A DNA stretch of 37,500 bases from a virus (lineage: Duplodnaviria > Heunggongvirae > Uroviricota > Caudoviricetes): positions 1 through 37,500 of IMG/VR virus record IMGVR_UViG_2713896799_000009; one strand, given 5' to 3'. Within the stretch, counting starts at the first letter, position 1. Every line of letters begins with the position of its first letter. Shown here piece after piece: positions 22,900-37,500 of the stretch. A model generated the notes under the pieces. The model was not told where the DNA came from. It ran no database searches and saw nothing but the letters and a program-made list of their open reading frames with translations. Made by a program: the position numbers and the translations under genes.

Positions 22900-22974
<75 letters not shown>

Positions 22975-22977
22975 ATA

Positions 22978-23053
<76 letters not shown>

Positions 23054-23055
23054 AC

Positions 23056-23132
23056 TGGACCGCCACCGGGGACTCGAACCTCGCACACTCAACTTAAAGG
23101 GTTGACGCTCTTTCCTGATGAGCTAGTGGCGG
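23056..23132 (-). tRNA. tRNA-like element (anticodon-position TTT, Lys-like), possibly a pseudo-tRNA
   Basis: Acceptor CCGCCAC/GTGGCGG, T-loop TTCGAGT, encoded CCA; but C at position 33 and a mismatch in the T-stem. Confidence 0.35.
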
Positions 23133-23133
23133 T

Positions 23134-23209
23134 TGGTGGCCCTTGCTGGATTTGAACCAGCGACCTGGCGATTATGAGTCGCTCGCTCTCACCACTGAGC
23201 TAAAGGGCC
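23134..23209 (-). tRNA. ileZ: tRNA-Ile2 (CAT anticodon, ileX/ileZ-like; tools often label it tRNA-Met)
   Basis: GGCCCTTTAGCTCAGTGGTGAGAGC...CTCATAA...GGTTCAAATCCAGCAAGGGCCACCA is near-identical to E. coli tRNA-Ile2. Confidence 0.8.
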
Positions 23210-26779: not shown

Positions 26780-27052
26780 TTACCTCCAGATCCGTTGCTG
26801 GAAAGTGCGGGACGGACGTGGTGGGCGTTCGGAATAAGGCAGCCTGACAGAGATTATCCAGTGCCGATAGTCGAGACTGAGAGCTTTCTTAACCTCGAAC
26901 CCGCGCCTGCGGTAAGAATGAATCAGCCATTCGGCCTGTTCTTCAGTACATGGTGGGTGTTGGTACCAGTCGGTTTTAAATGCGTGTGAACGCCGCTCAT
27001 GCCGGATGGCAAGGTCGGTATCAGAATTGTGAAATTTGGTTTTGTGCGCCAT
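26780..27052 (-). CDS. Hypothetical protein (Rem-like by position)
   Basis: 90 aa ORF between the hok-like gene and the ydfU-like gene; sequence not recognised. Confidence 0.4.
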   Translation of the reverse strand: MAHKTKFHNSDTDLAIRHERRSHAFKTDWYQHPPCTEEQAEWLIHSYRRRGFEVKKALSLDYRHWIISVRLPYSERPPRPSRTFQQRIWR

Positions 27053-27124
27053 CTGTTTTCTCTGCTGGCGCAGCAGGTGTCAGGTGTTCAGGCTGACGTG
27101 CGAATTGTAAACCAGAATGCCAGG

Positions 27125-27151
27125 AAAAAACAAAACCCGCCGAAGCGGGTT
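27125..27151 (-). terminator. Rho-independent terminator downstream of hok
   Basis: Minus strand AACCCGCTTCGGCGGGTT followed by TTGTTTTTT. Confidence 0.6.
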
Positions 27152-27219
27152 AAGTGCGGGTGCGTTGAGGATGCCTGACACATCAGAGGTGGCGAGGGAT
27201 TTCTCCCCCGCCAGGTCTC

Positions 27220-27375
27220 TTACTCCTCAGGTTCGTAAGCTGTGAAGACAGCGACCTCCGTCTGGCCGGTTCGGATTCGTACCTCGCAGAGGTCTTTCCT
27301 CGTTACCAGTGCCGTCACTATGACGGTTAAACAGATGACGATCAGGGCGATTAACATCGCCTTTTGCTGCTTCAT
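27220..27375 (-). CDS. hokD: Hok/Gef-family type I toxin (HokD/RelF-like)
   Basis: MKQQKAMLIALIVICLTVIVTALVTRKDLCEVRIRTGQTEVAVFTAYEPEE matches RelF/HokD as recalled; an in-frame upstream extension to 27432 corresponds to a mok-like frame. Confidence 0.85.
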   Translation of the reverse strand: MKQQKAMLIALIVICLTVIVTALVTRKDLCEVRIRTGQTEVAVFTAYEPEE

Positions 27376-27999
27376 AGCCTGCTTCTCCTTGCCTTTCGGC
27401 ACGTAAGAGGCTAACCTAGATTTGCCGTTCATAGATTGAGCCTCAGATTAATGTTAAGCGTCTTGTAGGACGCGTAATGTTAACTGGGGCTTTTCTCTAT
27501 CTGCCTTTGGTGTTCATGCCTGAGACAGATAGCCTCAAGCACCCGCAGCCATTCTACTTAACTCCCGTTACCTCGCCAATATAAAATCAATCAGAAAGGC
27601 GATCCATAAGAACAACAGCAAGACAATAAATTGCCATTACAGCTGCAATAGCCAGCGCACATTTGAGAACCAGCACGACAACCTCCTGTATTGGACGTAC
27701 ACCAGTCCTGATAAATATGAGGCTGTCTCATCATTGATGAGATACAACTATTGGGTATAGTTTCTGTGATTTTGTTCTGTAGAAATGGAACACAACAACC
27801 AGTCACCACCAGCACTTCTTTAAATACGCCAAGTCCGACGCAAGCTAACCTTCTAGTCCGCTTTGAGCGAAAAGCAGACTGTCACGCGTTGAAGTTAATT
27901 GTATTACTTAGATAAACACTATCATTTTCCTGACGTTAAGTTGTATCTTTGATAGGATTAAAAAACGTATAGATAGCTTATGCTACTGAGGGAATAAAA

Positions 28000-28809
28000 A
28001 TGACGAAAATTAGTGAACGATGGAAGCACAATGGCATTACTGAAGGTTATTGCAATATTTGTGGGAAATATGGCTTGCTCACAAAAGATCATGTTCCTCC
28101 AAAGTGCGCCATAACCTTAGGCCCTGTTTTGCAGAAAACAGTTAGCGAATTTTTTGGTATTCAGGAACCAGTTAAACCATTAAATGCTAAAAATGGCTCT
28201 TATTTCAGAACCATTTGCAGCCACTGTAACAATAAGGTATTAGGTGGGCTCGATGTTGCAATTGAAAATGTAACAAAGTCCTTTAAAGAACAGTTAAGTC
28301 GATATATGAATGGTATGAATGTATATCCATTCATTAGAATACCTTTTGATAGCATATCTTTCACTAAGGCTATGATTGGGCACGTGCTATCAGCAACTTC
28401 AGTTGAAGATTGTAAAAAAGAACCCGTAGATAGCCCCTTCTATACACCTTTAAAGGATTATGTTTTGGGTAAAAATTCAAGTTTTGAGGAAACTCATGAT
28501 ATTTACTACTGGTTTTACCCACACAGAATGCACATATCCGCTCAAAGTGTAGCATTTATGAACGAAGGACATGTGGCATTTATTTGTGCTTTACATTTTT
28601 TTCCTATCGGTTTTATTATCACAATGAAAAATGAAGGAACATACCCTGCCCACTCTACAAAATTAGAACTTGAAGATAAATTCCTTACATTTAATATGAC
28701 CTCTATAAATTATGAGTATACGACATTTCCATTTGTAAATCTTAAGGGAAACCAAATGTATGCGATAAGCAACGGTCATACTTGTGTGAGTTATCCAATA
28801 ATTAAGTGA
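28000..28809 (+). CDS. Hypothetical protein with N-terminal HNH-like nuclease motif and an unrecognised C-terminal domain
   Basis: 269 aa; GAGGGAA ribosome-binding site; motif C-x2-C...DH-VPPK...N...C-x-H-C-N-N-K in the first 80 aa; about 190 aa of C-terminus without recognisable similarity; AT-rich gene and promoter region unlike the flanking DNA. Confidence 0.6.
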   Translation: MTKISERWKHNGITEGYCNICGKYGLLTKDHVPPKCAITLGPVLQKTVSEFFGIQEPVKPLNAKNGSYFRTICSHCNNKVLGGLDVAIENVTKSFKEQLSRYMNGMNVYPFIRIPFDSISFTKAMIGHVLSATSVEDCKKEPVDSPFYTPLKDYVLGKNSSFEETHDIYYWFYPHRMHISAQSVAFMNEGHVAFICALHFFPIGFIITMKNEGTYPAHSTKLELEDKFLTFNMTSINYEYTTFPFVNLKGNQMYAISNGHTCVSYPIIK

Positions 28810-32910: not shown

Positions 32911-32968
32911 TTTCTGGTGACGTTTGGCGGTATCAGTTTTACTCCGTGACTGCTCTGCCGCCCTTTTT
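32911..32968 (+). ncRNA. dicF: DicF small regulatory RNA
   Basis: TTTCTGGTGACGTTTGGCGGTATCAGTTTTACTCCGTGACTGCTCTGCCGCCCTTTTT matches the E. coli DicF sequence as recalled, including the 3' terminator hairpin; located between ydfC and dicB. Confidence 0.75.
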
Positions 32969-36143: not shown

Positions 36144-36392
36144 ATGGCAAGACTCATTCTGCTCACTGAGTGGGCAAAAGAGGAATTCAGCGATCCGGTC
36201 CCTACTCCGGGCACGTTAAGTAAATACGCTAAAGCCGGAATGATATTTCCTCTCCCCAAAAAAGTTGGAAGACACTGGCGAGTGGATCCGCGAGCTCGCT
36301 TTGTCGGAATGGTAAACAAGCCGGAGGTGATCGCCACAGATCATCCTGCTTTGAAGAGGATACTGGAAGATGGCGCGCCCGCGAAAATATAA
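36144..36392 (+). CDS. xis: Excisionase-like protein (Xis)
   Basis: 82 aa, immediately upstream of and overlapping int; resembles e14/Rac-type excisionases. Confidence 0.7.
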   Translation: MARLILLTEWAKEEFSDPVPTPGTLSKYAKAGMIFPLPKKVGRHWRVDPRARFVGMVNKPEVIATDHPALKRILEDGAPAKI

Positions 36393-37500
36393 AACCGATG
36401 TTCCGGGATTATCTCCATATTTTGACAAAAGAAATAACAAAGTTTACTGGCGTTACAGGCATCCCATAACAGGCAAAAATCACGGTCTCGGCAGTATTGA
36501 CCAGAAACTGGCAGAAACTATTGCAGCAGAAGCGAACAGCCGTCTTGCCAGGCAGCAAATGGAACAAATGCTCAGTCTGCAGGAGAAAATTATTAATGAT
36601 ACCGGCGGTTCATCAACTGTTTCCATTTTTCTGAATAATTACAGAAAAATTCAACAGGAAAGATATGAAAACGGAGAGATCAAACTCAACACGCTGAAAC
36701 AAAAAGTGGCCCCTCTCAGGGTATTTGATGAACGTTTTGGCACCAGACCGTTAGATGCCATAACCGTAAAAGATGTGGTATCGGTGCTGGAAGAGTACAA
36801 GGCCAGAGGACATAACAGAATGGGACAAATTTTCAGGAAGGTACTGATCGATGTTTTCCGGGAAGCTCAGCAAACAGGCGATGTCCCGCCAGGCTTTAAC
36901 CCTGCAGAATCGGCAAAAAAACCGCAGGTGCGGATATCAAGACAGCGACTGACTTTTGATGAGTGGATGATGATTTATAACGCTGCGGAAAAGGATGGTT
37001 ACTTTTTACAGCGCGGTATGCTGCTGGCACTGATGACAGGCCAGCGCCTTTCAGATATTTGCAAAATGCAATTTTCGGATATCCGGGATGGTTATCTTCA
37101 TGTCGAACAGCAAAAAACAGGAACCCGGATTGCCATCCCTCTGGCTCTGCGTTGCGATAAATTAAATCTCACCCTGGATGATGTGGTGTCATCCTGTCGC
37201 GATTGCGTTCTTAGTCCGTGGCTATTGCACCATCATCACGCGAAAGGGACAGCTAAGCGCGGCGGGATGGTTAAGCCAGCAACGTTAACCGTTGCATTTA
37301 AAAAAGCGCGGGATTCTGTGGATTACAACTGGCGTGCTAATGGCACCCCACCCTCTTTCCATGAGCAGAGATCTTTATCGGAGCGATTGTTCAGAGAGCA
37401 GGGAATTGATACCCAAATTTTGCTGGGTCATTCGAATCAAAAAATGACCGATATTTACAACGATGCACGCGGTAAGGAGTGGAAAAAACTGATCATTTGA
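36370..37500 (+). CDS. int: Tyrosine integrase (lambda Int family)
   Basis: 376 aa; lambda Int-like over its whole length (RxxxHPITGKNHGLG, VEQQKTGTRIAIP, HEQRSLSERL, LLGHSNQKMTDIYNDARGKEW); the stop codon is the last triplet of the window. Confidence 0.9.
   Translation: MARPRKYKTDVPGLSPYFDKRNNKVYWRYRHPITGKNHGLGSIDQKLAETIAAEANSRLARQQMEQMLSLQEKIINDTGGSSTVSIFLNNYRKIQQERYENGEIKLNTLKQKVAPLRVFDERFGTRPLDAITVKDVVSVLEEYKARGHNRMGQIFRKVLIDVFREAQQTGDVPPGFNPAESAKKPQVRISRQRLTFDEWMMIYNAAEKDGYFLQRGMLLALMTGQRLSDICKMQFSDIRDGYLHVEQQKTGTRIAIPLALRCDKLNLTLDDVVSSCRDCVLSPWLLHHHHAKGTAKRGGMVKPATLTVAFKKARDSVDYNWRANGTPPSFHEQRSLSERLFREQGIDTQILLGHSNQKMTDIYNDARGKEWKKLII

Follow-up and report, generated by a model that had tools for sequence, protein, structure and literature searches.

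The 37.5-kb stretch of DNA analysed here (the window) is a near-complete lambdoid prophage of E. coli, and a hok-family locus occupies positions 27124-27579 on its minus strand. Read from right to left, the window carries a lambda-type integrase gene (36370-37500), a gene for an exonuclease-domain protein, DicF, YdaS/YdaT-like genes, a replication initiator gene and a DUF977 gene, followed by a 269-aa cargo gene, the hok/sok locus, a 90-aa phrog_1212 gene, DUF968, RusA and Q genes, four tRNA genes, and the lysis and morphogenesis genes. The features of the locus and its immediate flank are listed in Table 1. The toxin, MKQQKAMLIALIVICLTVIVTALVTRKDLCEVRIRTGQTEVAVFTAYEPEE, was identical to K-12 HokD at 51/51 residues, its coding sequence showed no differences from K-12 hokD (b1562) over 156 nt, and the protein matched the Pfam family HOK_GEF (PF01848) at 81.6 bits, against a cutoff of 22. 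The earlier note, made from the letters alone, had named HokD/RelF as the match for this type I toxin and had also described an upstream in-frame extension resembling mok and a clean terminator; all three were found, and the terminator is the same as that of K-12 hokD. RefSeq labels the identical hok sequence hokD in thousands of genomes, and HokD has been reported to be toxic upon expression (10.1101/2025.08.07.668861).

Table 1. Features of the hok/mok/sok locus and its flank in the window (positions in the window; ~ marks approximate ends).
Feature	Position	Strand	Details
269-aa gene	28000-28809	+	Fills the DUF977-hok slot; convergent with the early operon
29-codon ORF	27587-27676	-	(V/M)LVLKCALAIAAVMAIYCLAVVLMDRLSD; just 5' of the hok promoter; AGGAGG 6 nt before the GTG start
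hok/mok mRNA promoter	27551-27579	-	-35 TTGGCG (27579-27574), 17-nt spacer, -10 TAGAAT (27556-27551); from consensus scan
hok mRNA, full length (predicted)	27124-27544	-	~420 nt, +1 at G27544 to the terminator T tract; ends inferred
tac (translational activator element)	27533-27544	-	mRNA 5' GGGUGCUUGAGG, first 12 nt
5' stem-loop	27496-27532	-	Directly 3' of tac; mRNA positions 13-49; in both folds
ucb (upstream complementary box, anti-SD)	27486-27491	-	AGCCCC
Sok-target hairpin of processed mRNA	27407-27444	-	mok SD paired with dcb AGCCUC (27412-27407); apical loop variable
mok SD	27441-27444	-	GAGG, 8 nt 5' of the mok ATG
mok ORF	27220-27432	-	70 codons, in frame with hok; ATG at 27432
hok (hokD) CDS	27220-27375	-	51 aa; SD AAGGAG at 27390-27385
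Hairpin at Tyr47	27228-27242	-	CAG-CUUACGAAC-CUG, inside hok; loop presents UACG; Tyr47 codon TAC at 27237-27235
GC-rich 3' stem-loop	27191-27212	-	GGCGGGGGAGAAAUCCCUCGCC; in both folds
fbi (fold-back inhibition element)	27158-27170	-	CCUCAACGCACCC; tac partner in the full-length MFE
Intrinsic terminator	27124-27151	-	AACCCGCUUCGGCGGGUU and U tract; stem 27151-27134, then T tract; from terminator scan
Sok promoter	27389-27417	+	-35 TTGCCT (27389-27394), 17-nt spacer, -10 TAACCT (27412-27417)
Sok antisense RNA (predicted)	~27424-27498	+	~75 nt; 5' and 3' ends inferred

The mok reading frame has its own Shine-Dalgarno (SD) sequence and overlaps hok, which is the arrangement by which the family is recognised, and coupling of hok translation to that of mok is predicted. 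Its product matched PHROG 251 ('MokW-like host killing') at 7.7e-33, and the exact 70-aa sequence occurs in at least 1000 public contigs. The in-frame organisation of mok was considered as a difference from plasmid R1, on the view that R1 mok is out of frame with hok; this was dropped, as the R1-type plasmid locus likewise has an in-frame upstream ATG.

The -10 box of the hok/mok promoter lies about 6-7 nt 5' of G27544, the base that corresponds to position 1 of the Rfam leader model and to the 5' end of tac, and the hokW locus has kept this box and the bases around it. Folding of the full-length transcript (27544 to 27125) gave a minimum free energy (MFE) of -175 kcal/mol (z = -8.7) in a structure whose two ends pair with each other: tac was bound to fbi, and ucb held the mok SD. 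When the RNA was trimmed to the 27212-27191 stem-loop, it refolded (z = -6.2) so that tac was paired with ucb, leaving U4 bulged, and the mok SD entered the hairpin with dcb that constitutes the Sok target. On its own this hairpin folded at -14.7 kcal/mol (z = -4.0), and equivalent hairpins were given by the hokW and R1-type loci; the tac of the window also aligns with that of the R1-type plasmid locus. The mRNA of R1 hok undergoes a closed-to-open switch that follows the same logic of ucb/SD versus tac/ucb pairing (PMC9841398). As a thermodynamic prediction, the sequence of the window gives the same switch, and the 3' stem-loop at 27191-27212 is presumed from the R1 case (PMC9841398) to be the 3' end of the processed, active mRNA. 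The earlier note had looked for the fold-back elements on the plus strand, but tac (27544-27533) and fbi (27170-27158) belong to the hok mRNA on the minus strand.

The RNA fold was also examined by comparative analysis. A scan with HokD, using one genome per species, yielded 53 loci, and 34 non-redundant loci with a recognisable leader were aligned with the window from +1 to fbi (alignment A2; 35 sequences, about ten genera). The aligned loci belong to Escherichia, Shigella, Kluyvera, Pseudocitrobacter, Citrobacter, Photorhabdus, Pantoea and unclassified Enterobacteriaceae. RNAalifold recovered the closure between the 5' and 3' ends, the 5' stem-loop, the ucb/SD (Sok) hairpin, the 3' stem-loop and several helices in the coding region, with 98.2% of cells paired on the structure. 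Compensatory changes occurred at 16 pairs, a count that none of 500 shuffles reached and that compares with 8 or fewer in slid controls. The 5' stem-loop (helix 2) has 8 pairs, two of them with compensatory changes and 99.6% paired; the 3' stem-loop (helix 12) also has 8 pairs, two of them compensatory and 97.5% paired, and the Sok hairpin (helix 3) covaries among the homologues as well. RNAalifold returned only 6/12 tac/fbi pairs, the others being thrown out of alignment by a bulged C; these were checked by duplex folding of the ends (first 13 nt against last 16 nt); this gave the 12-bp tac/fbi helix in 16/16 distinct end combinations. Position 4 of tac shows a compensatory change from U-A to C-G in 11 of the 35 sequences, and paired substitutions at tac positions 11-12, judged by eye and unscored, were read as compensatory. 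This compensatory evolution of the helices, together with the upkeep of the locus in viable phages and in most E. coli genomes, points to purifying selection acting on the fold of the RNA. Elsewhere among the homologues, the locus of E. coli ECMA0423 (L005) encodes an identical HokD and has a degenerate tac region.

The antisense gene lies on the plus strand, where the earlier note had expected a Sok-like RNA without being able to delimit it: a promoter occupies 27389-27417 and the predicted transcript runs from about 27424 to 27498. This promoter was not called by a generic consensus promoter scan because its -10 box matches the consensus at just 3/6 positions, and its identification is based instead on homology to sokW and R1. 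The 30-nt oligonucleotide YO-597, published as a probe for sokW/hokW by Takada et al. in 2021 (PMC8621323), corresponds to 27387-27416 with 30/30 identical bases. According to the earlier note, absence of any detectable antisense gene or promoter would mark the locus as an inactive remnant, but the Sok promoter region proved identical to the sokW sequence over these 30 nt. Mutation of the sokW -10 box abolished antitoxin activity, and supplying Sok in trans restored it (PMC8621323). In the alignment with the R1-type locus, TATCCT and TTGCGC stand at the positions of the two promoter boxes, and the layout TTGNNN-17-TANNCT is shared by most of the 35 homologues, with hokC-type rows having CACTCT or CAGTCT at -10. 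The predicted Sok RNA has a single-stranded 5' tail of ~14 nt, a long hairpin (27438-27492) and the U-rich tail UUUUCUCU; it folds at -31.5 to -33 kcal/mol (z = -6.1) and is fully complementary to positions 47-121 of the hok mRNA, which comprise ucb, the mok SD and the mok AUG.

A search of Rfam, which the earlier note had suggested as a check for Sok and hok mRNA models, did return a strong match to RF01794, named 'sok antitoxin', over its full length (1-157; 110 bits against a gathering threshold of 59), but on the minus strand (27544-27370), where it marks the hok leader and not Sok. On the plus strand of the window the same model scored only 12.7 bits. The 5' end of the match coincides with tac of the hok mRNA, and the match extends at its 3' end to the hok AUG. 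RF01794 also matched the hok-sense strand directly 5' of hok in an R1-type IncFII plasmid and in the hokW locus of an Stx2 phage; matches to the hok-sense leader were located at 182-353 on the plus strand of L059 and at 1723-1897 on the minus strand of L060. Because the hok-sense strand upstream of hok is matched in both of these loci, RF01794 is a model of the hok mRNA leader and not of the Sok gene. Automated annotation through RF01794 will place 'sok' on the wrong strand; the Sok gene belongs on the strand opposite the toxin.

The closest described relative is hokW-sokW of Sakai prophage 5 and the Stx2 933W-type phages (PMC8621323), which also resides in lambdoid prophages and has 92% nucleotide identity to the window over the whole locus. 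The Sok promoter region, tac, ucb, dcb, fbi and the hok SD are identical in the two, and hokW-sokW likewise has a 70-codon in-frame mok. The terminator and flanks differ, however, and the C-terminus of Hok reads TAYEPEE in the window and VDYESEK in HokW. About nine substitutions between the two loci are clustered in mok codons 2-7, a segment equivalent to the Sok 5' tail and the target loop. Because the substitutions cluster there, the specificity of Sok probably differs between the allele in the window and sokW. The predicted target loop of the window, ACGGCAAA, lacks a YUNR motif, which is present as CUGA in the loops of the hokW and R1-type loci, although prediction of the loop is uncertain. 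Franch et al. reportedly linked a YUNR U-turn motif in the Sok-target loop to rapid pairing in 1999. With a loop that is predicted to lack YUNR, the pairing kinetics of the window's allele may differ from those of the hokW/R1 type.

Similar comparisons can be made with more distant members of the family. The hok/sok (parB) locus of plasmid R1 and its IncF relatives has its genes in the same order, is predicted to refold from a closed to an open form in the same way, and shares with the window the promoter, tac, ucb, mok SD, in-frame mok, dcb, hok SD and fbi, with the Sok promoter inside mok in both. The Hok protein is divergent: R1 Hok has 44% identity to HokW (PMC8621323), a protein close to the HokD of the window. 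The Sok/target hairpin of the window has ~18 extra nt at its tip compared to R1, the Sok -10 box is TAACCT and not TATCCT, and the replicon is a prophage and not a plasmid. The chromosomal hokC/mokC/sokC (gef) loci, represented by rows L014-L021 of the covariation alignment, belong to the same family, conform to the same leader model and have ~80% Hok identity to the window. Their Sok hairpin is shorter, without the 18-nt tip, the -10 region is different, and they are found in the core chromosome, whereas the locus of the window belongs to a prophage.

The earlier note had called the locus an orphan, expecting the relBE genes that accompany hokD in the Qin prophage and reporting that no RelE/RelB-like ORFs follow hok. 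The absence itself was confirmed: no RelE or RelB homologue was found by tblastn anywhere in the 37.5-kb window (best E-value >1), and the relBEF-type arrangement, with relB and relE immediately 5' of hokD, is not present. The term orphan is misplaced, however, in that all regulatory elements are kept, and it is the K-12 copy that is truncated. The sequence that starts at the hok SD AGGAGAAGCAGGCTATG and includes the terminator is identical in K-12 and the window, which share the 156-nt CDS, the 3' UTR, fbi and the terminator, but the sequences upstream are unrelated, and in K-12 the 3' end of relE abuts in place of the leader. The leader having been replaced by relE, hokD (relF) of the K-12 relBEF operon therefore lacks the promoter, tac, ucb, mok start and Sok, all of which the window has; consistently, RF01794 found no leader match in the K-12 Qin hokD region. 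K-12 hokD has been described as inactivated by genomic rearrangement (PMC12214031). Among 5426 complete E. coli genomes, the complete type of locus (at least 80% of 27100-27620 covered, leader included) was found in 3840, compared to 1173 with the relE-hokD junction. Because the complete form is so much the commoner of the two, lack of relBE is the normal state and 'orphan' a misnomer; on these sequence comparisons K-12 Qin hokD is the truncated, rarer form. The arrangement looked surprising in the earlier note because the rearranged K-12 copy had served as the standard. In annotation, hokD without relBE should be taken for the complete, ancestral-type hok/sok module, with truncation ascribed to the K-12 reference. 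A related junction was seen in Kluyvera sp. CHPC 1.2972 (L027, ~1296-1650), in which a K-12-like relE 3' end and intergenic sequence lie directly 5' of a divergent hok with 70% amino acid identity to HokD; the relBE-hok fusion therefore extends beyond E. coli.

Taken together, the locus in the window is very probably a type I toxin-antitoxin module with hok, mok and sok complete, belonging to the hokD/hokW subfamily and carried as cargo in the early-right region of a lambdoid prophage, between replication and Q. The isolated temperate phages Evi, Tritos, mEp460_ev081 and HannyBb carry the locus at the same position with 94-97.5% identity, and hok genes have been reported as about four-fold enriched in prophages (10.1101/2025.08.07.668861). 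The locus is conventional, an element that has already been described, and implies no new biology.

The working of such a module can be outlined from the predicted folds and from its relatives. A weak promoter would produce a stable hok mRNA of ~420 nt, which, as folding and covariation suggest, would be kept translationally inert and devoid of a Sok target by the tac/fbi closure and the pairing of ucb with the mok SD. Slow trimming of the 3' end to the GC stem-loop, a step taken over from R1, would remove fbi, and the fold of the trimmed sequence predicts that tac then pairs with ucb and that the mok SD enters the SD/dcb hairpin. Sok, expected to be a constitutive, short-lived RNA of ~75 nt, would pair through its 5' tail with this hairpin and cover the mok start, thereby blocking mok and with it the coupled translation of hok, and triggering cleavage by RNase III; here the complementarity is evident in the window, and the kinetics are extrapolated from R1 and sokW. 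If Sok synthesis were stopped or outcompeted, the processed mRNA would be translated and Hok would depolarise the inner membrane. Prophage loss, a global block of transcription and prophage induction are possible triggers.

In the hokW-sokW system, mitomycin C lowered the level of Sok and raised that of Hok in a RecA-dependent manner, and deletion of hokW-sokW halved phage release (PMC8621323). Extrapolating from that one study, the most likely role of the module in the window would be to help lyse the host and release phage once the prophage is induced; prophage retention through post-segregational killing and abortive infection are alternatives. A more specific proposal is that the hokD/hokW module acts in intact lambdoid prophages as an induction-sensing lysis timer. 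Lying in the sense orientation relative to the early-right operon, it would receive additional hok-sense RNA from de-repressed read-through, which would also occlude the convergent Sok promoter, while divergent alleles of the Sok 5' tail would keep co-resident copies orthogonal. If true, this would explain the RecA-dependent drop in sokW and rise in HokW, but we offer the proposal tentatively and consider it unlikely as it stands. The locus in the window could serve as a natural allele for testing both the specificity of Sok and the role in prophage induction proposed for hokW-sokW.

Transcription might also come largely from outside the locus: hok could be mainly a passenger of the early-right operon, expressed by read-through from the cro/O side much as hokD is the third gene of K-12 relBEF, with the local promoter and Sok being secondary. 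The toxin gene points the same way as the YdaS/YdaT-like, replication, DUF977, DUF968, RusA and Q genes, a search of the interval from DUF977 to hok revealed no strong terminator on the minus strand, and the rise of HokW on RecA-dependent induction fits this explanation too. However, the locus has its own promoter just 5' of the conserved tac, which is the RNA 5' end required for both tac/fbi and tac/ucb pairing, the convergent 269-aa gene separates DUF977 from hok, and read-through leaves the conservation of Sok and of the fold-back elements unexplained. We therefore consider a mainly passenger role rather improbable.

We also considered the possibility that the locus merely looks intact and is now functionless, silenced by subtle point mutations as has been proposed for K-12 hokB and other chromosomal copies. 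The weak Sok -10 box and the lack of a YUNR motif in the predicted target loop would be consistent with such decay. As cited in one study (10.1101/2025.08.07.668861), earlier tests of chromosomal hokA, hokB and hokC gave neither post-segregational killing nor activation by rifampicin. Against this stand the presence of all defining elements in mutually complementary form, intact ORFs identical to a toxin of demonstrated toxicity, a Sok promoter identical to the functional sokW promoter, and a locus that is kept in viable phages and most E. coli genomes with helices that evolve compensatorily. An inactive remnant thus appears very unlikely. Finally, the literal Rfam annotation, in which Sok would be the minus-strand feature 27370-27544 and the plus strand would encode nothing, has in its favour the family name and the strand of the match, but is almost certainly wrong: the strand evidence from the R1-type and hokW loci rules out the match as the Sok gene itself, and the probe and promoter published for sokW map to the strand that does not encode hok. 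A complete module with Sok encoded on the plus strand is thus the preferred reading.

The coding region also contains the small hairpin at Tyr47 (helix 11 of A2), in which two of the three stem pairs covary across genera (CG/UA 21:14 and GC/AU 22:11). In K-12, hokD mRNA is ~6% edited, and A-to-I editing by TadA has been described for hokD, hokC and hokE (PMC12214031). By analogy, the hairpin is likely a TadA A-to-I editing site, with A27236 as the predicted edited base in the window copy, changing Tyr47 to Cys.

Several small ORFs flank the module. The 74-aa ORF at 27591-27815 had no Pfam or PHROG match and was unannotated in the RefSeq genomes inspected, in agreement with the earlier note, to which it had looked non-coding. 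On the other side, the 90-aa ORF at 26780-27052 was considered as a candidate for Rem, as in Qin, but tblastn with K-12 Rem was empty; it corresponds to phrog_1212, which has no assigned function. The 29-codon ORF encodes a hydrophobic product resembling a transmembrane segment. It is open in five homologous copies, including those of Tritos and HannyBb, down to 87% nucleotide identity; the changes affect only third codon positions in L001 and L058, additionally include one R-to-H substitution in L055, and are conservative in HannyBb. It has been called as a gene on 146 contigs, had no family match, and could represent a small membrane protein that has escaped annotation. A promoter-like site on the plus strand (27558-27587) would direct a transcript antisense to it.

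The slot between DUF977 and hok holds variable cargo: SLATT and SMODS nucleotidyltransferase genes in strain C5, and other genes in HannyBb and Tritos; in K-12, relBE, ydfV and flxA lie beyond hokD. In the window the slot is occupied by the 269-aa gene, whose product matches phrog_21495 (unknown function) end to end, carries the public label 'chaperonin' and has an N-terminal CxxC...DHVPPK sequence. Searches of the 269-aa, 74-aa and 29-aa ORFs against PADLOC, Pfam and NCBIfam assigned them to no defence system or family. At 27726-27742, a perfect 8+1+8 palindrome, TCTCATCA-T-TGATGAGA, overlaps a plus-strand promoter-like -35 box and could be an operator for the cargo gene; the corresponding sequence in the otherwise 95%-identical strain C5 copy is not palindromic. 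Elsewhere in the prophage, a full-length DicF sRNA (32912-32963, plus strand; 76.7 bits) lies in the early-left region, and the four tRNA genes, Gly-TCC, Thr-TGT, Lys-TTT and Met-CAT (22900-23209, minus strand), are located between the Q region and the lysis genes.
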